64,000 nt of DNA from an uncultured Rikenellaceae bacterium (GCA_963802145.1 CAWDHN010000005.1:188023-252022); one strand, 5' to 3'; counted from the stretch's first letter, positions 2,228 through 13,301 are shown. Notes: generated by a model not told the origin, from the letters alone. Numbers and translations: made by a program.

Positions 2228-3661
2228 ATGACCCCCCTGATCAAAGCGTTCCTCATTAAGAACGGTAAGCGGCTGCTTTTGATGGCCTTCATCCTTGTTG
2301 CCCCGGTTTATCTTTTTGCTGCGGGAGGTGAGATGCCTTCCATCGGACCTGTTCGTGTTGAATTTATCATATTCGGACTGATCCTTCTGGGAGTGGCACT
2401 ATTCCACAAACAGACATTCTGGGTGGCTGTAATAGGATTAACGGTGCTGCTGACATTCAAGCTCATTGTTGATCCCGGGTTTAACCTCCTTGAACATTTC
2501 TTTGGCACCACTCCCATGGGCGAACAGATAATGGATAAGGACTTACGGCAGGGTGAATGGGGAATCATCCTGAACCTGCTGGGATTACTGCTTGGATTTG
2601 CAGTACTTTCGAAAATTTTCGAAGAATCCGGGGTGCCTGACGTACTCCCTAAGTACCTGCCGGATGACTGGAAAGGTCCTTTCCTGCTGCTCATTTTCGT
2701 TTTCATACTGTCATCATTTCTTGACAATATAGCTGCCGCACTGATTGGCGGCACAATTGCACTTGTTGTTTTTAAAAACCGGGTGCATATCGGCTATATT
2801 GCTGCAATGGTGGCAGCAAGCAACGCAGGAGGATCAGGAAGCGTGGTTGGAGATACCACCACCACAATGATGTGGATTGACGGTGTCGCCGCATTCAATG
2901 TTCTCCATGCATATGTCGCGGCAGTTGTGGCTCTGCTCTTCTTTTCATGGTTTGCAGCTCACCAGCAGGACAAATATCAGCCGATCCAGAGGGATGCCGA
3001 TCCGAATGTGAAAATTGACTGGGTAAAATTATTCAGTGTGGCCCTGATCCTGGCAGGTGCCATCATTTCCAATATTCTCTATGATATGCCTGCATTGGGG
3101 GTCTGGATTGCCATCGTCATCGGCGCCTTCCTTCGCAAAATGCCTTGGAAAGAAGTTCCCGGGGCCCTCAAGGGGACCATCTTCCTGCTCAGCCTCGTCA
3201 CATGCGCCTCAATGATGCCTGTTGAAGAACTTCCGGGTGCCTCCTGGGTTACCGCATTCTCCCTGGGATTCCTTTCAGCTGTATTTGATAACATCCCATT
3301 GACCAAGCTATGCCTGGAGCAGGGACATTTTGACTGGGGCATGCTTGCATACACTGTCGGTTTCGGCGGATCAATGATCTGGTTCGGATCATCAGCCGGT
3401 GTGGCCATAACCAACAAATTCCCCGAGGCCCGCAATGTGGTCCTATGGGTAAAAAAAGGATGGTATGTCGCCGTGGCCTATGTCATTGGCTTCTTCGCGC
3501 TTTTACTGATCATGGGTTGGGAACCTGCTGATACCGGCAGGCATAAAATCGAGAACTGCCCGGTTCCGGGTTGCCCGGCTGCCGGGAATACCGAGACAGG
3601 AAAACCGGAGGCAGAACGGGAACCCGCATCAATAAGTTTCCCTGGGGAAGGACAATATTGA
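2228..3661 (+). CDS. ArsB/NhaD (ion transporter superfamily) permease
   Basis: Polytopic hydrophobic protein with the motifs SSFLDNIAAAL, ASNAGGSGSVVGDTTT, SAVFDNIPLT and GFGGSMIWFGSSAGVA, typical of NhaD/CitMHS-type permeases. Confidence 0.8.
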   Translation: MTPLIKAFLIKNGKRLLLMAFILVAPVYLFAAGGEMPSIGPVRVEFIIFGLILLGVALFHKQTFWVAVIGLTVLLTFKLIVDPGFNLLEHFFGTTPMGEQIMDKDLRQGEWGIILNLLGLLLGFAVLSKIFEESGVPDVLPKYLPDDWKGPFLLLIFVFILSSFLDNIAAALIGGTIALVVFKNRVHIGYIAAMVAASNAGGSGSVVGDTTTTMMWIDGVAAFNVLHAYVAAVVALLFFSWFAAHQQDKYQPIQRDADPNVKIDWVKLFSVALILAGAIISNILYDMPALGVWIAIVIGAFLRKMPWKEVPGALKGTIFLLSLVTCASMMPVEELPGASWVTAFSLGFLSAVFDNIPLTKLCLEQGHFDWGMLAYTVGFGGSMIWFGSSAGVAITNKFPEARNVVLWVKKGWYVAVAYVIGFFALLLIMGWEPADTGRHKIENCPVPGCPAAGNTETGKPEAEREPASISFPGEGQY

Positions 3662-4160
3662 CTTTTTCAACCTCGCAGAGGAGATGCTTCGCCCTCTCCT
3701 GCCTATCACAGACTTGAATCCGGCTGTTGAGCTTTTCCGGCGTTGACCGCAATGCCAGCCTTTCGCTTAATGCCAATTGGGAAATGACCCATGCCATGAA
3801 CATTAATAATTGCCTGGACACTGAGACAAGACTATTATGAAAAGCCCCACTCAGAAAGATAAAAGGCCAGCAGAAACAGCATGTTATTCAGATAACAGAA
3901 GAGAGTCCATTTCGCTCAGAAGTCGTTTTACTTTTATTCCCTGTAGAGATAATTTCACTCCGATTTTGAGTATCATAAACTCTACTTTATATCTACATAC
4001 CTAATATAATTGGCTTTACTACCTCTACATTAATATCATTTCCCCTTTTCTATATAGTTATTATTCAATTATCTATGTATTTCATATAACTCTACATAAT
4101 AGTAGTTACAATTCTATCTAAACTATATGAAAATAAAAACCCTCTGTTAAGTATATGGTT

Positions 4161-4168
4161 TATATTTG
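4161..4168 (+). promoter_or_regulatory. Bacteroidota -7 element (TATATTTG) for the phosphate locus
   Basis: Exact TAnnTTTG match 24 nt upstream of the DUF47 ATG. Confidence 0.6.
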
Positions 4169-4192: not shown

Positions 4193-4840
4193 ATGGCTTT
4201 ATTCAAGAATGCAAACAAGGTCGTCGATACTATTGAAAGATTTTTCAATACTATTGATCAGGGAGTTCTGGTTTTCAAGGAGGGGGTCAGCAACTATCTG
4301 CACGGCAATCAGGAAGCGTTTACAAACAATATTGCCAGCCTGGCAAAGCTTGAAGCAGAGGCTGACACTCTGAGGCGTGACATAGAGAACAAACTCTACA
4401 CTCATTCCCTGATGCCCCAGGTCAGAGGTGATATGTTAAGGCTTCTTGAGGAGATGGACAATATAATTGATACGGCAAAAAAGAATCTCTTTCAGTTTGA
4501 TGTTGAGACACCGAAGATCCCGGCAGAGCTTAATCAGGACCTGATACTCCTCACTGACATGTGTGTCTCATCGGTGGCTTCTGTAATCCCTGCCGCGAGA
4601 GCCTACTTCAGGTCGCCCGAGACGGTTAAGGATCAGATACACAGGGTCTATTTTTACGAGAAGGAAGCCGATAAGCTTGCAGAGGGAATTAAAAGAAAAG
4701 TGTTCAGGCAGATGCCGGGACTGAGATTAAGCGAGAAGTTTCATCTGAGGTACTTCACCCTTCACATCGAGACGGTTTCTGATACGGCTGAAAAGGTTGC
4801 AGATCTGCTTTCAATTATGGCTATAAAAAGAACTATATAA
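4193..4840 (+). CDS. DUF47 / PhoU-like Pit accessory protein (TIGR00153-like)
   Basis: 215-aa helical protein with LEAEADTLRRDIENKLY and YEKEADKL repeats. It lies immediately upstream of a PiT transporter, the usual DUF47-pit arrangement. Confidence 0.88.
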   Translation: MALFKNANKVVDTIERFFNTIDQGVLVFKEGVSNYLHGNQEAFTNNIASLAKLEAEADTLRRDIENKLYTHSLMPQVRGDMLRLLEEMDNIIDTAKKNLFQFDVETPKIPAELNQDLILLTDMCVSSVASVIPAARAYFRSPETVKDQIHRVYFYEKEADKLAEGIKRKVFRQMPGLRLSEKFHLRYFTLHIETVSDTAEKVADLLSIMAIKRTI

Positions 4841-4848
4841 GATAACAG

Positions 4849-6603
4849 GTGTTTTTCCTCTTTCTTACCAGCGGACTTTTTCTGGGGTGGTCATTGGGTG
4901 CCAATGATGCCGCCAATATATTTGGCACGGCGGTAGGGTCAAAAATGATCAGCTTCAAAAGGGCCGCTATAATTGCAAGTATTTTTGTCATTATAGGCGC
5001 AACTGCCCAGGGAAGCGGCACAACAACAACTCTCAGCAAACTCGGGTCTGTGGACGCCCTCGCCGGAGCCTTTACCGTGGCGCTGTCAGCAGCCATTGTG
5101 ATTTTTACCATGACCAAATACCTGATCCCGGTCTCAACCACACAGGCGATCGTGGGTGCTATAATAGGGTGGAATTTCTTTACCGGGCACAAAACAGATG
5201 CCGGCCTCCTTAGCACAATAGTTACCACATGGATTGCGGGACCATTGCTTGGGGTAGCTTTTTCAGCGGTATTGTATATTCTTTTCCGAAAGCTTCTTAT
5301 GCGTCTGCAGGTTCACCTGCTGATTCTTGATGCCTACATCAAATGGGGATTGATTATTGTCGGAGCCTTCGGGGCTTACAGCCTCGGGGCAAATAATATT
5401 GCCAATGTAATGGGTGTTTTCGTCGGCTCAGCTCCAGATATCATCATTGATCTGGGGCTCTTTACACTGGACGGTCCCCAGGTATTGTTTCTCCTCGGAG
5501 GAATTGCAATTGCCATAGGCATTATGACATACAGCAAGAACCTTATGATTGAGGTTGGCAACGGAATAATGGCTCTTACAGCCGAAGCTGCAATAGTTGT
5601 TGTACTTTCCCAGGCGATAGTTCTTTTCCTGTTCTCTTCAACCTCATTTTCGAACCTGCTGGCTGGCATAGGCCTGCCTCGCATCCCCCTCGTTCCTGTA
5701 TCCTCCTCCCAGGTTATCGTAGGTTCGATAATCGGAATAGGACTGGTTAAGGGTGTTAATGAAATAAAATTCAGTACCATAAGGGGAATTGCCGGTGGCT
5801 GGGTTCTGACACCTGTACTTGCAGGCCTGCTCTCATTTTTTGCCCTTTTCTTTGTAAAGAATATTTTCGGACTAAACGTGGGAAGTGAAGTAAAAAGCAG
5901 CAATGCCGTTCAGGAGGTCCCTGCAGGGATTATCGAAACTTTGCCTGAAACAGGCAGGTACATTAATTTGATATGGCCGGGAATTTCAGTGCTGGTACTT
6001 GTGGTTTTCGCCGCAGTTATCATTTATTCCCTTAACCAGCAAAAAAGAAGGCTTGCAGTAGAAAAGGAACTCCTGGAAAAAGAAAAGGAATACAACAATA
6101 CCCAGAAGGCTCTTACCGATGCAGAGATTAAAGCAATTCACCTCGAGAACTCTTTCCTTCACAGTGAAATAGAAGCAAAGCGTAAGGAACTTATTGAGTA
6201 TGCACTCAGCATCGTGGAGCAGAAGGAGTATTTTGAAAAGATCAGTGGTGACCTCAGATCTCTGCTTGATGACAGGAAACCGGAGGTCAGGGATGAAAAA
6301 ATCAGGAAGCTGGAGGTGAATATAAGGCAAAGAATGAGCTTTGACGACAAGGTCGAGGATTTCAACCTCCGCACTGAAAAAATGCACAGGGATTTTATCG
6401 GCAGGCTTACGCAGTTGTTCCCGGATCTTTCGTCAAATGAGAAGAAACTTGCGGTATTTCTCAGGCTGGGCATTTCATCGAAAGAGATAGCCACCCTGTT
6501 GAACATCTCGCCCAAAAGTGTGGAGATCAACAGGTACAGATTAAGAAAAAAACTTGGACTTGGCAAGGGAGCCAACCTTATTCAGTTTATAAACAACATC
6601 TAA
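4849..6603 (+). CDS. Inorganic phosphate transporter (PiT/PHO4) fused to a C-terminal LuxR-type HTH regulator
   Basis: GTG start. PiT signatures GANDAAN (aa 17-23) and GANNIAN (aa 180-186), PVSTTQAIVG and PVSSSQVIVG. An extra TM helix at aa ~372-395 is followed by a coiled coil and the LuxR HTH LSSNEKKLAVFLRLGISSKEIATLLNISPKSVEINRYRLRKKL (aa ~525-572). Confidence 0.88.
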   Translation: MFFLFLTSGLFLGWSLGANDAANIFGTAVGSKMISFKRAAIIASIFVIIGATAQGSGTTTTLSKLGSVDALAGAFTVALSAAIVIFTMTKYLIPVSTTQAIVGAIIGWNFFTGHKTDAGLLSTIVTTWIAGPLLGVAFSAVLYILFRKLLMRLQVHLLILDAYIKWGLIIVGAFGAYSLGANNIANVMGVFVGSAPDIIIDLGLFTLDGPQVLFLLGGIAIAIGIMTYSKNLMIEVGNGIMALTAEAAIVVVLSQAIVLFLFSSTSFSNLLAGIGLPRIPLVPVSSSQVIVGSIIGIGLVKGVNEIKFSTIRGIAGGWVLTPVLAGLLSFFALFFVKNIFGLNVGSEVKSSNAVQEVPAGIIETLPETGRYINLIWPGISVLVLVVFAAVIIYSLNQQKRRLAVEKELLEKEKEYNNTQKALTDAEIKAIHLENSFLHSEIEAKRKELIEYALSIVEQKEYFEKISGDLRSLLDDRKPEVRDEKIRKLEVNIRQRMSFDDKVEDFNLRTEKMHRDFIGRLTQLFPDLSSNEKKLAVFLRLGISSKEIATLLNISPKSVEINRYRLRKKLGLGKGANLIQFINNI

Positions 6604-6613
6604 TCAATTAATT

Positions 6614-8002
6614 ATGAAAAAACCACAACTATTAAGTTTCATGCTGCTGGTCGTTTTTATGATAACCACCGGCGGTGCAGTAATGGCACAGGATCCTGAT
6701 TCTGTACGTTACAACCAGTATGGCGTGCCCGTAAATCGGACAAAGCTGAACGTAGAATTACGAGGCGGATCACTTGTCTTTGAAACAGATGACCAGTCGA
6801 CAAGGATATGGACAGATGTCCGTGTTCAGGCTGACGGTGCAGTATTTTTCGGCGAGCCTCTGAATCCGATAGGGAACGGTACATCTATCCGCAGGGCCCG
6901 TTTTGGGATCAAGACCTACTTCCTGAACCATTGGTACGGTGAGTTTGATATGGATATTTCAAACTCAGAGCTTGAGGTCAAGGATGCCTATCTCGAGTAC
7001 AACTTCAAGAAGTACTCTGAAAACGGTGGTCTTCAACTGAGGGTTGGGAACTTCAAGGAGCCATTCTCACTTGAGATGAATACCACTTCAAGGTATCTGA
7101 CCTTTATCGAGAGAGCCAATGTGGTCGCTATTTTTGCACCTTCCCGCCATATCGGGACGATGGCTTCTTACCAGAAAAACTGGTTCGTAGGTTATGCCGG
7201 CATTCATTTCCAGGATATTGGCGGTCTTGAGGAGAGAACATTCTCCGAGGATAACAATAAAGACTACGGGATGGATGAGGGCTATTCATTCACGGGCAGG
7301 ATGGCGCTAATGCCCTTCTACAACAATCCTGATTACGGAATCCATCTTGGCGCTGCGGCCTCCTACCGCACTCCCACCACTGAACAGGAGATCCCCGGCA
7401 CTATAAGATACAGCACCAGGTCTCTGACATCGATCAACAGAAAGAAATATATTGATTCTGATGATATTGCAAATGTTGATCATGCACTTCTGGGTGGACT
7501 TGAGTTCGCTGCCTATTACAAGGGACTAAGGTTTCAGGGTGAATATATAATGAACAATGTGACAATAAAGAATGACGGAGGAACTGAAAAATTCAGCGGA
7601 TTTTATGTTTTTGGAAGCTGGATTCTCTTCGGAGGGAAGCATCAGTACAACACTAACGACGGCGAGTTCACACAGGTCGGCAGAGGAAAAAAATGGGGCG
7701 ATATTGAACTTGCATTCAGATACGACTACCTCACTCTCAACAGCAGAATGGAAGGCATCATGGGCGGCGCAGGCGATGGGTACACCTTCGGAATAAACTA
7801 TCATGCCAATGACAATGTCAAGATAATGTTAAACTATGCTTTGCTTAATCATGACAGGTATGCGAATGGCAGAGGAAAACTCTTTGTTGGTCACGACATT
7901 GACGGCAACCTGACAAAGAATCCCGCAACAGTAGTTGATGACGCAGGTACTGCCGGTAATGATTACAGTTTCCTGGGCGTGCGGTTTGAGGTCGATTTCT
8001 AG
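6614..8002 (+). CDS. Phosphate-selective porin, OprO/OprP family
   Basis: Signal peptide, the motifs IRRARFG, VKDAYL and GNFKEPFSLE..T.SRYLTFIER, alternating beta-strand patterns and a C-terminal Phe (RFEVDF). Confidence 0.85.
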   Translation: MKKPQLLSFMLLVVFMITTGGAVMAQDPDSVRYNQYGVPVNRTKLNVELRGGSLVFETDDQSTRIWTDVRVQADGAVFFGEPLNPIGNGTSIRRARFGIKTYFLNHWYGEFDMDISNSELEVKDAYLEYNFKKYSENGGLQLRVGNFKEPFSLEMNTTSRYLTFIERANVVAIFAPSRHIGTMASYQKNWFVGYAGIHFQDIGGLEERTFSEDNNKDYGMDEGYSFTGRMALMPFYNNPDYGIHLGAAASYRTPTTEQEIPGTIRYSTRSLTSINRKKYIDSDDIANVDHALLGGLEFAAYYKGLRFQGEYIMNNVTIKNDGGTEKFSGFYVFGSWILFGGKHQYNTNDGEFTQVGRGKKWGDIELAFRYDYLTLNSRMEGIMGGAGDGYTFGINYHANDNVKIMLNYALLNHDRYANGRGKLFVGHDIDGNLTKNPATVVDDAGTAGNDYSFLGVRFEVDF

Positions 8003-8056
8003 CATTCATTGCGCAAATAGCTGAGTAACATCAAAAATTTAAAAATCAATAGCGAT

Positions 8057-8878
8057 ATGAAAACCAAATATTTGTTTCTGTTTCTTGCCTCACTTGTAGT
8101 CGTTTTAAACGGTTGCGTTGAAGATGAGGTATTTGTAGGTCCTCCCACAATTTCAAATATGAGTATAGCACCGCAGGCACCTTCTACAACTGATGAGGTT
8201 ACGGTCTCAGTAAAGGTCACTGACCTGAAAGGCGTCTCCGAAGTCAAACTCTTGTATAAAGTCGGCGACGGCGCATATGTAAGTGTCACCATGACTGCCG
8301 GATCCAACTATACTTATACAGGTAAAATACCTCCCCAGGCACCTTCGTCAGTAGTGCAGTATTATGTCTCGGCCACCAATGTTTCAGATTTAACAGGAAC
8401 TCTTCCCGAGACTGCGCCAGCTGCGACAGCAGCATTTACTGTCGGAGCGCCGTCAATAGTCATAAATGAGGCCTATTCACGAGGGGCAGATCTGGAACTT
8501 GACTGGATTGAAGTATACAACAACTCTGACATTGCGGTAAATATCGGCGGCTATAAAATATATGACAATGGCGGTCAGGCCGGCACCAAACCCAAAATGG
8601 AATTTCCCGCAGGCACAACACTTCCTGCAAGAGGATTTTATGCCATAGTGGTCGATGATGCAGCTACGGCATTACCGACAGGATCAAACTTCGGTCTTGG
8701 CTCAGGCGGCGATGAGGTCTGGCTTGAGAGCCCGCAGGGTTTCGTCATTGACAATATGGTCATCCCGGCACTGGCTGCGGGCCAGTCATTCGGCAGCAAA
8801 CCTGACGGATCAGCAACCAGGTTCATCCTGCTTGAGAGAACAAAGGCAGCCTCGAACAACAATTCACCTACCCTGTAG
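8057..8878 (+). CDS. Lipoprotein with an Ig-like N-terminal domain and a lamin-tail domain
   Basis: Lipobox LNG-C20 followed by acidic VEDE. Lamin-tail motifs IVINEAY, DWIEVYNNS...VNIGGYKIYD and FGLGSGGDEVWL. Confidence 0.8.
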   Translation: MKTKYLFLFLASLVVVLNGCVEDEVFVGPPTISNMSIAPQAPSTTDEVTVSVKVTDLKGVSEVKLLYKVGDGAYVSVTMTAGSNYTYTGKIPPQAPSSVVQYYVSATNVSDLTGTLPETAPAATAAFTVGAPSIVINEAYSRGADLELDWIEVYNNSDIAVNIGGYKIYDNGGQAGTKPKMEFPAGTTLPARGFYAIVVDDAATALPTGSNFGLGSGGDEVWLESPQGFVIDNMVIPALAAGQSFGSKPDGSATRFILLERTKAASNNNSPTL

Positions 8879-8893
8879 GTAACCATGGTATTG

Positions 8894-8927
8894 GGTAATC
8901 AACGGCAGAACGCCGTTGATTACCTTT
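8894..8927 (+). terminator. Strong stem-loop between the outer-membrane genes and the CYTH genes (terminator or mRNA stabiliser)
   Basis: GGTAATCAACGGC-agaac-GCCGTTGATTACC is a perfect 13-bp stem with only a short T tail. Confidence 0.6.
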
Positions 8928-9008
8928 ATCCTAAGCATGATTTCAAGGGTGATTGCCTTGAGCAGTTAATTTTTTTATTCTGATAATTACATATTTAATA
9001 AAGGAAAA

Positions 9009-9650
9009 ATGTCAAAAGAAGAATTAAAAATCGGAGAGATTTCCAAACCGAGGTTTGAGTTCCGGTCATTCGGACAGGATTTTGAAAATGCTGCCAGAAG
9101 GATGGCCAGGTTTTCACTCCCCGTTCCCGAAAAGGTATGGGAGAGATACTCAGATGAGATTTACATACTCTCACGCACGAACGATGTCAACAACACCAAG
9201 ATACGTGACGGCAAGATGGACATTAAGACATACGTTCAGACTGTTGACGGTCTGGAACAGTGGAACCCGCTCATGAAGGGTGAGTTCCCTATTCAGGCCT
9301 CTGTTCTGAAGAACGAGGTTTTTCCTGCGTTTCAGGTAAAGATGCCGGAACTCACAAAAGATGTATATACATTTGAAGAGTTCATGGACATGGTAAAAAA
9401 CCATCCTGATCTGGCTGCGGTTAAGGTTCACAAGCAGAGATTCGGCTATATGGTCAATAATACAATATGTGAATTCGGGGCCGTGCTGATTAACGGTGCT
9501 AAGGTTTTCACCATAAATTCAGAGTCGACGGAAGTTGAGGACATTAAGAAAACCATAAAGGATATTGGTCTTGAGGGTGTTGAAAACATCAACTATCTTC
9601 AGGCAATCAAGAGAGTTATAGGAATGATTAACAAGCCTCTGGCTAATTAA
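9009..9650 (+). CDS. Hypothetical protein, probable divergent CYTH/triphosphate tunnel metalloenzyme fold
   Basis: RFEFR echoes the EXEXK motif. KIRDGKMDIK, VHKQRFGY and C-terminal NYLQAI parallel CYTH elements. The gene is adjacent to a canonical CYTH gene. Confidence 0.55.
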   Translation: MSKEELKIGEISKPRFEFRSFGQDFENAARRMARFSLPVPEKVWERYSDEIYILSRTNDVNNTKIRDGKMDIKTYVQTVDGLEQWNPLMKGEFPIQASVLKNEVFPAFQVKMPELTKDVYTFEEFMDMVKNHPDLAAVKVHKQRFGYMVNNTICEFGAVLINGAKVFTINSESTEVEDIKKTIKDIGLEGVENINYLQAIKRVIGMINKPLAN

Positions 9651-9660
9651 ATCGTAAGAT

Positions 9661-10128
9661 ATGGCACAGGAAATTGAAAGAAAATTCCTCGTTAAGGGGG
9701 AATTCAAGCAGCAATCGATAAAAGCGACCAGGATTACCCAGGGTTATCTCAGCTCAGTACCGGAGCGCACGGTAAGGGTAAGGATCAAGGGTGACAAGGG
9801 GTTCATCACAATTAAAGGGATAGGCAGCGCCTCAGGAGCATCACGTTATGAATGGGAGAAAGAGATCCCCTTAAGTGAGGTTGAACAGCTTCTGGCAATA
9901 TGTGAGCCGGGCGTCATTGACAAAACACGTTATCTTGTAAAGTCAGGCGATCACACATTTGAGGTTGATGAGTTCTATGGAGAAAACGAAGGCCTCGTCG
10001 TGGCTGAAATAGAGCTCGCATCTGAGGGCGAAGCCTTCATAAAGCCTGAGTGGCTTGGAGTTGAAGTTACAGGAGACGCCAGGTATTACAACTCAATGCT
10101 GATGAAGAATCCCTTTAAAAGCTGGTAA
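9661..10128 (+). CDS. CYTH-domain protein (short triphosphate tunnel metalloenzyme, inorganic triphosphatase-like)
   Basis: MAQEIERKFLV (EXEXK), ITQGYL, VRVRI, EWEKEI, KTRY, FEVDEF and AEIEL. Confidence 0.92.
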   Translation: MAQEIERKFLVKGEFKQQSIKATRITQGYLSSVPERTVRVRIKGDKGFITIKGIGSASGASRYEWEKEIPLSEVEQLLAICEPGVIDKTRYLVKSGDHTFEVDEFYGENEGLVVAEIELASEGEAFIKPEWLGVEVTGDARYYNSMLMKNPFKSW

Positions 10129-10141
10129 GGAAACCTGGATC

Positions 10142-11767
10142 ATGAATACGTCCGCAGATAACAACACTCAGCGCCGGGAGGGTTTTGACCCGCTCGACAT
10201 GAATAATTACAGAATTGAGAAACTGCCCAAGAGGGCAAAAGGACCTGTTGAAAGATGGCTTGCCATCCTGGGCATACCAATGGCAATCATCAGTTTTGTC
10301 CTTATTGCTTTCATTGTCAATATCCCCTTCCTGAGTGACATAGATCCTGAGAAACTGGTGTCAACAGCCGCTAAAAAAGCGTATGATTCTCTGGGCGCTG
10401 AGGGTTTTATGCGGACGAATATCATGATGCTTGCAATTTTTGCTGCTGCCCTGATTCTCTGGATCACCGAGGCGCTACCCAATTATCTCACATCCCTGAT
10501 TATAATTATAAGCCTGGTCCTGAGCGGGGTGTTGCCTGAGAAAGAGGCTTATGCACAGCTGGGCCATCCGGTGATGTGGCTGAATATCATGTCGTTTGTG
10601 CTGGCCAGCATGCTCGTGGCAACAGGAGTGGCAAAGAGGTTTGCATTGTGGTTCATCATAAAGTTCGGTAAGAACGCAGGTTCGATATTTGTAAGTTTCA
10701 TAATTATCAACCTCATTCTTTCGGCATTCATTTCAGCAACCACGGCAAAGGCAGCAATTCTGTTGCCGGTATTCATGGTCATCGCCTCCATTTACGGGGC
10801 TCATACGGGAAACAAAAACAATTTCGGACGCAGTATCGTGCTGCAGAACCTCCTTAACATCAATCTCGGCGCAGGCGCATTTGTAACAGGCTCCGGAGCC
10901 AATCTGCTTGCAGCTGCCCTTATTGGAGGTGCTATCGGAGGCAAAGTGTTTTTCGGCGACTGGATGATGGCAATGTTCCCGATAATGCTCGGACTGATGT
11001 TTGTTGGCTATTTCATAGCTATGAAAATCTACTTTCCCCTTGCTCCCGAGGAGAGACTTCCTCAGATCGAAGGGGGGATGGATAGATTGCGGCAGGAGTA
11101 TCAAAAACTGGGAAAGATTGACAAGCAGGAGGTTAAGGCAATCATTCTCTTTCTGTTCATTCTGGGTTTCTGGGCCACAGACCGCATCCACGGGATCAGC
11201 GCAACCTCAGTTGCCTTCGTGGGTGCCATTATCGCCCTGCTGCCCCGGGTTGGTATCGTGAAGTGGAATGATGTCGATATCCCCTGGCACCTGATGCTCT
11301 TCTCCGCAGGGGCCTATACCCTGGGTTCCGGACTTGACTTTACCGATCTGCCCTCCCTCAGCGTCAATGCCATTTTTGACCATCTGGGGATCGGAAACAG
11401 TACACCCTTCTGGCTGCTTTACATCCTCCTGACCGGTGTCATGGTATTCAGCGCTCTTCTGTTCCAGTCAAAGACAATGAGGGCAATGGTATTTATCCCC
11501 ATTGCAATAGGTGTTGCCAACAGGTTCGGATTCAGCATCATAAGCCTTGCACTTCCGGTCGCATTCATGATTGAGCATGTCTATGTGCTTCCCTTTAACA
11601 GCAAACCTGCAGCCCTGCTTTATGAAACTGACCAGTACAGTCTTTCAGATGCATTCAAATTCGGGATAACGATGATGGTCATTTCCTGGCTGATAATAAT
11701 TATTGCGGGCGAAACCTGGTTCAGGGTTCTGGGAATAACACCCAATGGGGTTTTTGGAATATTCTGA
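10142..11767 (+). CDS. DASS/SLC13-family anion permease
   Basis: Polytopic membrane protein with SAFISATTAKAAILLP, TGSGANLLA, W.DVDIPW and LPFNSKPAALLY motifs of the divalent anion:sodium symporter family. Confidence 0.85.
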   Translation: MNTSADNNTQRREGFDPLDMNNYRIEKLPKRAKGPVERWLAILGIPMAIISFVLIAFIVNIPFLSDIDPEKLVSTAAKKAYDSLGAEGFMRTNIMMLAIFAAALILWITEALPNYLTSLIIIISLVLSGVLPEKEAYAQLGHPVMWLNIMSFVLASMLVATGVAKRFALWFIIKFGKNAGSIFVSFIIINLILSAFISATTAKAAILLPVFMVIASIYGAHTGNKNNFGRSIVLQNLLNINLGAGAFVTGSGANLLAAALIGGAIGGKVFFGDWMMAMFPIMLGLMFVGYFIAMKIYFPLAPEERLPQIEGGMDRLRQEYQKLGKIDKQEVKAIILFLFILGFWATDRIHGISATSVAFVGAIIALLPRVGIVKWNDVDIPWHLMLFSAGAYTLGSGLDFTDLPSLSVNAIFDHLGIGNSTPFWLLYILLTGVMVFSALLFQSKTMRAMVFIPIAIGVANRFGFSIISLALPVAFMIEHVYVLPFNSKPAALLYETDQYSLSDAFKFGITMMVISWLIIIIAGETWFRVLGITPNGVFGIF

Positions 11768-11777
11768 TTGAGAAAAG

Positions 11778-13241
11778 GTGATTGAAAAATCTGTCAAGAT
11801 ACATGACCAGTTTTCGCTGGAGCTTAAGTTCGGATATGCCACGCGGCGAAAGCAGAAGGTAAATATGTTTGAGGTGAATACCTGGATATTCATCCCTAAC
11901 AGCCTTGACATAAACAGACTGACCTATGACAAGAGTGACTTCTATAAAGACCTGAAGTCAAATATCCGGTTAATCACGCCGGCATTTCTTCTCAGGGACA
12001 TAGCCGATCCAAAGAAGCCACCCTTCGTACATCTGGAGAATTCATTTATGACTCTGGCGGGTAATCCTGTCAGGACAAACATCAGGGAATATGAACATCA
12101 GCTCAAGATGTTCCACTCCATACTGAAATCATCACTCCGGGAACACAGGGAACATATAATCAGGAACATCCTCACGGAGGACCGGGAATACCTTATTTCC
12201 TCCTATCTTCTTAATACCAGGAGTATTATGTCCAACTACAGGGGGTTGAGGCATATTATTTCAGTTCCCACTGTCAGCAAGGAGCAGTTCAATATCTTCC
12301 TTTTAGGGGATGAATTTATGAGCAATCTCATTGAACAGCACACCTTTATCCTGGCAGATGACCTGGATAAGGGATATCCGGATGTATATGCGGAGGCCGG
12401 AAGCAGCCTGCTTGAACTGATAAGGTCAGAGAATGACTACCGGCGAACAAAGGGATTTCCCGTACCCGGGGTTGGAAATCCGGACCAGAACATGGAGCTG
12501 ATTTACCGGCGCGGTGTGCTGAAGAAATTGTTTGAGAGTCAGCTTTTTCTCTCAACCCGTAAGAAAAAGGACGGACTCATTTTTGAACAGCTTATCTACA
12601 GTGCAGCTGCCGGACTGGCTATGATCTTCGCCACGGGCATTGCTTTCGCTTTCCAGAGGAAGTATGGTAATTTTACCACCCCCCTGTTTTTCGCGCTGGT
12701 GGTAAGCTATATGTTCAAGGACCGGTTGAAGGATCTTATGAGGTTCTACTTTGCCGGTAAGCTAAAAAAGGTCTTCTTCGACCACAAGACAAAGATCATG
12801 GTTCGGAATGATCAGCCAATAGGATGGTGCAAGGAGAGCTTCGACTTTGTCTCTGAAGAAAAGATTCCGGCAGAGATTAAAAGCAAGCGTAAAAATTCAG
12901 TCCTGATGGAGTCGGAGTGTGCGGAAGGCTGGGAGAAGGTGATACTCTACCGGAAACTGATGCGGCTCGACCGTCCTTCACTTGATAATGTCTTCACTGA
13001 CTTCACAATCACGGGGGTGAATGACATCATCAGGTTCAATGTGTCTAACTATATCCAGAACATGGATAATCCCGAGATACCGGTGAGGCATCTCACAGAA
13101 TCGGGTTATGATGTGATAAGCGGCCCTAAAGTCTACTTCCTTACTTTGATCATTAACATCAATCATGACGGTGAAGTCCATAACAATGCATACAGGGTCA
13201 CCTTTAACAGGTCCGGAATCCGGAAGGTAGAATCCCTCTGA
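11778..13241 (+). CDS. Hypothetical protein, 487 aa, with a two-helix membrane hairpin near aa 270-325
   Basis: Long clean ORF with a GTG start 10 nt after the DASS stop. The hydrophobic segments are IYSAAAGLAMIFATGIAFAF and FTTPLFFALVVSYMF. No family recognised. Confidence 0.75.
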   Translation: MIEKSVKIHDQFSLELKFGYATRRKQKVNMFEVNTWIFIPNSLDINRLTYDKSDFYKDLKSNIRLITPAFLLRDIADPKKPPFVHLENSFMTLAGNPVRTNIREYEHQLKMFHSILKSSLREHREHIIRNILTEDREYLISSYLLNTRSIMSNYRGLRHIISVPTVSKEQFNIFLLGDEFMSNLIEQHTFILADDLDKGYPDVYAEAGSSLLELIRSENDYRRTKGFPVPGVGNPDQNMELIYRRGVLKKLFESQLFLSTRKKKDGLIFEQLIYSAAAGLAMIFATGIAFAFQRKYGNFTTPLFFALVVSYMFKDRLKDLMRFYFAGKLKKVFFDHKTKIMVRNDQPIGWCKESFDFVSEEKIPAEIKSKRKNSVLMESECAEGWEKVILYRKLMRLDRPSLDNVFTDFTITGVNDIIRFNVSNYIQNMDNPEIPVRHLTESGYDVISGPKVYFLTLIININHDGEVHNNAYRVTFNRSGIRKVESL

Positions 13242-13293: not shown

Positions 13294-13301
13294 TAACTTT
13301 G
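13294..13301 (+). promoter_or_regulatory. Bacteroidota -7 element (TAACTTTG) for the RluA gene
   Basis: TAnnTTTG match 19 nt upstream of the ATG. Confidence 0.55.

Follow-up and report, generated by a model that had tools for sequence, protein, structure and literature searches.

A conserved eight-gene operon of Bacteroidota as a candidate system for scavenging condensed phosphate

What is the cargo of an operon that places a phosphate carrier fused to a DNA-binding domain beside an outer membrane porin, a surface lipoprotein, a DASS-family permease and two tunnel-type proteins? The question is raised by positions 4193-13241 of a 64,000-nucleotide stretch of DNA from an uncultured Rikenellaceae bacterium (GCA_963802145.1 CAWDHN010000005.1:188023-252022; the whole stretch is referred to below as the window). 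Sediments, wastewater, food additives and the gut are rich in polyphosphate and tripolyphosphate. The prevailing view is that bacteria draw on these compounds only once they have been hydrolyzed outside the cytoplasm, and we know of no dedicated uptake genes. The eight genes described here are a real, strongly conserved Bacteroidota operon. We tentatively propose, with somewhat less than even confidence, that it specifies a phosphate-species scavenging system, with tri- or short polyphosphate as the probable business of the DASS carrier and the tunnel pair. The eight products were compared with Pfam and NCBIfam profiles at curated cutoffs (bit scores below are given against these cutoffs), and six of them were assigned to Pfam families; the features of the locus are as follows.

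3980-4118, + strand: CTACA-type direct repeat array (from reading of the sequence and orthologous upstream regions)
4161-4168, + strand: -7 promoter box TATATTTG of the Bacteroidota type, 24 nt upstream of the gene 1 ATG
4193-4840, + strand: gene 1, DUF47/PhoU_div protein of 215 amino acids (aa) (PF01865, 84.8 bits versus a cutoff of 24.4)
4849-6603, + strand: gene 2, PiT (PHO4) carrier with a C-terminal LuxR/GerE helix-turn-helix (HTH), 584 aa (PHO4 and GerE profiles)
6614-8002, + strand: gene 3, outer membrane porin of the OprO/OprP family with a signal peptide (PF07396)
8057-8878, + strand: gene 4, lipoprotein with a C-terminal lamin-tail domain (LTD) (PF00932)
8893-8975, + strand: two hairpins in the gap between genes 4 and 5 (folding, minimum free energy [MFE] and z-score)
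9009-9650, + strand: gene 5, predicted divergent triphosphate-tunnel (TTM) fold protein, 213 aa (AlphaFold2 [AF2] model, Foldseek)
9661-10128, + strand: gene 6, canonical CYTH/TTM protein, 155 aa, with the motif EIERK (PF01928)
10142-11767, + strand: gene 7, DASS/SLC13-type permease (PF00939, Na_sulph_symp)
11778-13241, + strand: gene 8, membrane protein of an unnamed family, 487 aa (AF2 model; no Pfam match)

To establish how widely this arrangement is kept, the best 80 loci holding a relative of gene 5, which itself was found in at least 506 species genomes, were searched by tblastn. Genes 5 and 6 were present in all 80 loci, the DASS gene in 69, the porin in 65, the LTD lipoprotein in 58, DUF47 in 48, PiT in 47 and gene 8 in 40, with shortfalls falling largely at contig ends. 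Members found in these loci of other species always stood in the order and on the strand seen in the window (hereafter type-1 loci), an arrangement far beyond chance. In a second, rearranged form, the fetched loci showed the order 5-6-7-1-2-3, followed by an LTD protein, a beta-propeller lipoprotein and another LTD protein, with gene 8 missing. That the gene set is kept through rearrangement and under a different regulator (see below) is strong evidence that it is one functional unit. The earlier note on this DNA had staked its interpretation on the genes recurring together in other genomes, and recur they do, both in the 80 loci and in the permuted form. In an even draw across the phylum, 13 of 400 high-quality genomes carried a gene 5 relative, as did 2 of 24 congeners, which makes the operon an accessory unit of rare occurrence. 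In 8 of the 13, gene 5 had a form 38-44% identical to that of the window, and it is the fetched loci with this form that showed the rearranged order. The gene set is so far uncharacterized, and a literature search found no paper on it.

The eight open reading frames (ORFs), all on the + strand, are separated by successive gaps of 8, 10, 54, 130, 10, 13 and 10 nt. The ORF map and a scan for the promoter consensus agree with the original description of eight co-oriented genes behind one intergenic TAnnTTTG box, and the gene identities first assigned, including "CYTH-like" for gene 5 and "unknown membrane protein" for gene 8, were borne out by Pfam, AF2 and Foldseek. The box at 4161-4168 was retained at the equivalent spot in four close relatives (L011, L016, L017 and L022), while TAnnTTTG as such was not significantly enriched across the window (35 copies versus 23 ± 5 expected). 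The only other intergenic + strand copy of the region, at 13294, directly precedes rluA, and the unit was therefore taken to end at gene 8.

A biochemical lead comes from gene 6. Its product matched PF01928 (54.4 bits versus 23.2), carries EIERK at aa 4-8 and was similar to NE1496 of Nitrosomonas europaea (NeuTTM; 3TYP/2FBL) at an E value of 1.5e-21. NeuTTM, a characterized and specific inorganic triphosphatase, is of the same length as gene 6 (155 aa) and has in common with it the ExExK motif as well as the residues of the tunnel (R39, R41, K52, E64, E66, K88, R90, E101, D103, E116 and E118 of gene 6 were invariant in 16 orthologues). No adenylate cyclase or thiamine triphosphatase was found among the sequence matches of gene 6. 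The gene 6 product is therefore a probable inorganic triphosphatase, and the relationship of the short CYTH protein to such enzymes, as originally suggested, is supported at the level of homology. It is the only CYTH gene in its own genome (G000, 97.6% complete).

Gene 5 was far more divergent. It had no Pfam or NCBIfam match and no PDB sequence match at E ≤ 10, its profile aligned to that of gene 6 with an hhalign probability of only 0.5%, and pairwise profile-profile comparison of genes 5, 6 and 8 found nothing; close relatives make up at least 3,545 clusters, every one annotated as hypothetical. The AF2 model (predicted local distance difference test [pLDDT] of 87) nonetheless had 38 Foldseek matches in the PDB at E ≤ 1e-3, all of them TTM/CYTH proteins or RNA triphosphatases barring Mediator Med18/20, with 1yem, 2gfg, SaTTM, AtTTM3 and ThTPase at the top (E values from 3e-6, TM-scores of 0.44-0.57). 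As modeled, gene 5 has the eight-stranded tunnel fold, which it shares with NeuTTM, and is CYTH-like by fold only: at the ExExK position it reads R15-F-E17-F-R19 (family pattern R-[FW]-E-[FWY]-R) and so lacks the motif itself. In an alignment that included paralogues of 37-44% identity, E17, R19, R66, K73, K142, E155 and E172 were invariant and K64 and R144 nearly so, residues that predict a tunnel of basic character and an unusually small number of metal ligands. The protein has no signal peptide, and its sequence identity among Bacteroidales, Chitinophagaceae, Saprospiraceae and Weeksellaceae amounts to 80-93%. Since identity at codon positions 1, 2 and 3 was 0.86, 0.93 and 0.42, with synonymous sites near saturation, this conservation reflects an old divergence under very strong constraint and not recent transfer. 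Compared with NeuTTM, CthTTM, YgiF, SaTTM and AtTTM3, the CYTH protein of this locus differs in being always paired with a divergent, ExExK-less tunnel protein, and, again unlike those enzymes, the two predicted triphosphate-binding proteins lie within an operon of transporter and porin genes.

The carrier beside the tunnel pair is a variant one. Gene 7 matched PF00939 at 183.4 bits (versus 27), scored just under the cutoff of TIGR00785 (195.3 versus 198.6) and aligned to VcINDY over its whole length. It is a permease of the DASS/SLC13 type, like VcINDY, NaDC3 and NaS1, but both of its SNT motifs are replaced by motifs that bear Lys or Arg: the first reads S-A-T-T-A-K (FISATTAKA), the second S-K-T-M-R (QSKTMRA), and the later P-x-x-T-P-P-N is replaced by P-F-N-S-K-P (PFNSKPAA). 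These replacement residues were invariant or nearly so in 59 orthologues. In VcINDY, N151 of the SNT motif binds both Na1 and the substrate (PMC13394699). Fixed positive charges in the place of Na+ ligands would fit a more anionic cargo and Na+ independence, as we infer from the alignment. A specific relation of gene 7 to yeast Pho87/90/91, which the earlier note named as members of the DASS family, was not supported: unlike those SPX-DASS proteins, gene 7 has no SPX match, and no Pho90 chain was among its 14 PDB matches.

Of the envelope genes, the porin fits a phosphate theme. The Pho regulon of Pseudomonas aeruginosa includes OprP and OprO, porins selective for phosphate and pyrophosphate/polyphosphate. 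Gene 3 (PF07396, Porin_O_P, 148.9 bits versus 20.9; N-terminal signal sequence) is likewise a Porin_O_P member and likewise sits in a phosphate-related operon; unlike them, it is neither beside pstSCAB nor visibly under PhoBR, and it is too distant from OprP for a dependable residue alignment. Gene 4 has an N-terminal Ig-like region and a C-terminal LTD (PF00932, 55.5 bits versus 34.3), with a lipobox LNGC and acidic residues after the Cys. Its relatives carry one to five LTD copies, and some are secreted by the type IX secretion system (T9SS). In many loci these proteins are accompanied by a lipoprotein of the YjiK/SdiA-regulated, phytase-like beta-propeller type (26 of the 80 type-1 loci and 7 of 9 refetched loci, L094-L100). 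The multi-LTD or T9SS-secreted LTD proteins and the beta-propeller proteins of relatives suggest a polymeric substrate outside the cell.

DUF47/PhoU_div proteins such as gene 1 are the usual partners of PiT carriers. Gene 2 encodes in one chain a PHO4 domain (198.4 bits versus 33.7; aa 17-329) and a GerE domain (27.3 bits versus 23.5; aa 527-579). Between the carrier core and the HTH lie an extra transmembrane helix (about aa 374-392), which would place the HTH on the cytoplasmic side, and then a coiled-coil stretch. The GerE domain was kept in 6/6 type-1 gene 2 orthologues examined, even where the PHO4 part had decayed. The HTH is retained but PHO4 scores no higher than the Pfam threshold, or falls below it, in the orthologues of loci L051, L050, L036 and L089, from lineages that are Alistipes-like or, in some cases, of other kinds; such decay suggests a carrier turned pure sensor.

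The promoter region offers a candidate target for this HTH. Exact copies of CTCTACA occur at 4023-4029 and 4090-4096 and degenerate copies start at 3980, 3991 and 4112, giving offsets of 0, 11, 43, 110 and 132 bp, all near multiples of 11. Among 48 orthologous upstream regions, CACTACA was found in 24 (1.0 expected) and CTCTACA in 19 (0.7 expected), mostly in the forward orientation, and 45 of 62 spacings differed from a multiple of 11 bp by no more than 1 bp. Because the loci are related to each other, the signal is weaker than its nominal P value implies. The repeat is essentially locus-specific, as only three repeat pairs lie in noncoding AT-rich DNA of the own genome, one of them at this locus. 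It was missing from all seven upstream regions of rearranged loci, and the PiT protein of the one rearranged locus scanned (L095) has no HTH. Because the repeat co-varies with the LuxR fusion, we propose the C(A/T)CTACA array as the binding site of the gene 2 LuxR domain, and we interpret gene 2 as a one-component sensor-regulator that is tethered to the membrane and descends from a phosphate carrier. Retention of the fused HTH, together with phased repeats that co-vary with it, supports the view already taken in the earlier note that PiT-LuxR is the locus's own sensor. The repeat was also considered as a general Pho box; this was rejected given the three noncoding sites genome-wide, with the other site examined preceding a capsule/exopolysaccharide cluster. 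That site is a CTTTACA pair at G000:C10:1406198-1406272 with the same 67-bp spacing, probably a chance match; no phosphate gene was found at this one other site.

The rearranged loci appear to be controlled differently. A GGCA(C/T)-N5-TTG(C/T) element lies about 70 nt before gene 5 in 6/7, and a divergent trio of a periplasmic PhnD-family binding protein, a histidine kinase and a sigma-54 activator lies upstream in 5/9; the nearest solved relatives of the binding protein are ArrX, PtxB and AioX. The trio has the composition of the AioXSR/ArrXSR three-component oxyanion sensors, and the element is of the -24/-12 type. The window has no such trio; the fusion of PiT to LuxR and the CTACA array stand in its place. 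Either regulator would be a dedicated oxyanion sensor, which we count in favor of the proposed scavenging role. Within the operon, genes 4 and 5 lie 130 nt apart, and two hairpins occupy this gap: the first, at 8893-8925, has a 14-bp stem with TTTAT behind it, and the other, at 8942-8962, ends in a run of T (MFE, -38.7 kcal/mol; z = -4.6). A long hairpin with a U tail stands in the same place in L011, L016, L017 and L022, and because its sequence differs in these four close relatives, the structure is what is kept. The hairpins may be a partial terminator or a processing site, and may set differing levels for the envelope and cytoplasmic genes.

Gene 8 completes the set. It had no Pfam or NCBIfam match, its relatives (1,968 clusters at 50% identity) are annotated only as "hypothetical protein," and its AF2 model (pLDDT of 86), with domains rich in beta structure at both termini, a long bundle of helices and a transmembrane hairpin at 267-328, had no match at E ≤ 1e-3 in a fold search of the PDB. 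Two further genomes of this order have neither gene 5 nor gene 7, yet in both a gene-6-type CYTH gene (63-70% identical) adjoins a gene 8 homologue. The pair, found without uptake genes, is therefore a separable unit with a role independent of them. It is located at 6109-9464 of L107 (G070:C16) and 7971-10458 of L108 (G166:C1), among housekeeping neighbors (mnmG, guaA). In eight loci without gene 8, the DASS gene is followed instead by a gene for a membrane protein of 920 aa (e.g., L012, 12986-15748). This protein has no Pfam match, and profile-profile comparison found no similarity between it and gene 8.

Taken together, we suggest an accessory, self-regulated and envelope-spanning system whose distinctive cargo would be tripolyphosphate or short polyphosphate, perhaps pyrophosphate (PPi). 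The surface LTD lipoprotein would hold a polyanionic or particulate phosphate source, assisted in many relatives by the extra LTD proteins and the YjiK/phytase-like beta-propeller lipoprotein, and the OprO/P-type porin would admit orthophosphate (Pi), PPi and short chains to the periplasm. The variant DASS carrier, in which the replacement of Asn by Lys/Arg is evident from the alignment, could then import condensed phosphate for cleavage by the cytoplasmic TTM pair, with gene 6 as the NeuTTM-like enzyme by homology and gene 5 as either a second specificity or a noncatalytic partner. Any PPi formed would pass to a pyrophosphatase (PPase), of which the genome encodes both a membrane (H+-PPase) and a soluble form, and gene 8 might serve as a membrane-anchored partner of the triphosphatase. 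PiT-LuxR and DUF47 would sense phosphate at the membrane and switch the operon on, with PiT-LuxR, as its co-variation with the 11-bp-phased CTACA repeats suggests, binding these above a weak promoter. As an extension of the same proposal, the locus might also harvest phosphoanhydride energy, with imported tri- or short polyphosphate cut to PPi for an H+/Na+-pyrophosphatase or PPi-dependent enzymes and the adenylate kinases encoded in some loci (see below) feeding the gain into the adenylate pool; we consider this extension rather unlikely.

The overall logic of a surface lipoprotein, outer membrane channel, inner membrane carrier, cytoplasmic hydrolases and cis-encoded membrane regulator is shared with SusCD polysaccharide utilization loci (PULs) and the PusCD clusters of Flavobacterium. 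Here, however, the channel is a diffusion porin, and no SusC-like TonB-dependent transporter or SusD-like lipoprotein was matched among the eight products or the recurrent extra genes. "PUL-like," as the locus was first called, is thus an analogy only, since there is no SusCD pair. The Flavobacterium PusCD paper mentions neither CYTH nor this gene set (PMC8115612). The interpretation offered in the earlier note is thus partly supported: one conserved unit, a CYTH protein of the triphosphatase type and a PiT-LuxR protein that looks like a sensor are borne out, whereas the PUL-like label and a specific relation of gene 7 to Pho87/90/91 are not.

Several observations weigh against a condensed-phosphate cargo. 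PiT and DUF47 are orthophosphate-related and not polyphosphate-related families. The DASS family includes the Pi carrier Pho90, so gene 7 could move plain Pi. The own genome encodes PPK1, and no Ppx-GppA exopolyphosphatase was found in it, so the TTMs could mobilize the cell's own polyphosphate. The separate occurrence of CYTH with gene 8 suggests that these two genes, at least, serve an endogenous function, which may be tri-/polyphosphate turnover. The terminator-like element splits genes 1-4 from genes 5-8. Direct repeats, finally, are unusual for HTH domains of the LuxR type, which bears on the proposed regulator.

Several of these points favor the main rival explanation, an operon for scavenging and homeostasis of Pi only, in which the porin, PiT and a Pho90-like DASS carrier move Pi, the TTM pair and gene 8 mobilize the cell's own tri-/polyphosphate when Pi is scarce, and the whole replaces Pst in this organism. 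No PstB was found above the cutoff in the own genome, which in this respect departs from a classical Pho regulon (PstSCAB-PhoU, PhoBR). PstB was also missing from 6/8 related genomes with gene 5 versus 13/33 without it, a weak difference among genomes that are not independent. Many relatives, however, lack Pst and this locus alike, and simple replacement of Pst by the locus is at best weakly supported across the 41 relatives. Also against this rival, two plain PiT genes (plus a PHO4 match inside a 753-aa ORF) already lie elsewhere in the genome. Further points against it are the order 5-6-7, with the tunnel pair beside the carrier in both locus types, surface LTD and beta-propeller proteins suggestive of a polymeric substrate, and a carrier that has lost the Asn of both SNT motifs, the Na+ and substrate ligands of VcINDY. 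A Pi-only operon is the leading alternative to condensed-phosphate uptake, but a less likely one.

Organic or triphosphorylated cargo (nucleoside triphosphates [NTPs], phytate/inositol phosphates or DNA-derived phosphate), with the TTMs trimming terminal phosphates inside the cell, appears improbable. It would explain a tandem adenylate kinase gene in six related loci, the match of the optional lipoprotein to SdiA-regulated and phytase-like beta-propeller families and a weak match of the LTD region to the extracellular nuclease ExeM, and some short TTMs do hydrolyze NTPs. Yet no nuclease, phosphodiesterase or nucleoside-handling gene was found in any locus variant, gene 6 is closest to the tripolyphosphate-specific NeuTTM and has neither cyclases nor thiamine triphosphatases among its sequence matches, and OprO/P pores are narrow anion channels. 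Least probable is a machine for polyphosphate synthesis or export, in which a bacterial counterpart of the VTC complex of eukaryotes, where an active and an inactive tunnel domain sit on a membrane channel, would cooperate with a DASS carrier of the Pho91 kind. In its favor, the locus combines a canonical TTM protein and an altered one with two membrane proteins, and membrane protein gene 8 travels with the CYTH gene. Against it, genes 5 and 6 have no VTC-family match, the 50 best fold matches of gene 5 do not include Vtc4, gene 6 is most like a hydrolase, and the porin, surface lipoproteins and sensors fit uptake better.

Two neighboring genes were considered as members of the unit and rejected. 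An ArsB/NhaD-superfamily permease on the same strand at 2228-3661, 530 bp upstream, with weak CitMHS and NhaD matches, was found in 1/80 loci. Downstream, rluA was found in 0/80 and has its own promoter box.

The carriers of the operon are hundreds of Bacteroidota species, mostly anaerobic, from lakes, digesters, sludge and animal guts. New here are the constraint on gene 5 across orders and the occurrence of the CYTH and gene 8 pair without the rest, as well as, at the level of sequence, a phased repeat tied to a LuxR-bearing PiT and a DASS carrier with both SNT motifs replaced by invariant ones that bear Lys or Arg. Apart from its cargo, the locus offers a putative membrane transcription factor that descends from a phosphate carrier and has a defined DNA motif, a DASS permease whose binding site has been rebuilt and, in genes 5 and 8, two large unannotated families, one of which is among the most constrained proteins of these genomes. 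For the Bacteroidota that carry it, the operon is a concrete, testable candidate for a route of condensed-phosphate uptake, and if the energy-harvesting extension were true, environmental polyphosphate would be an energy substrate.

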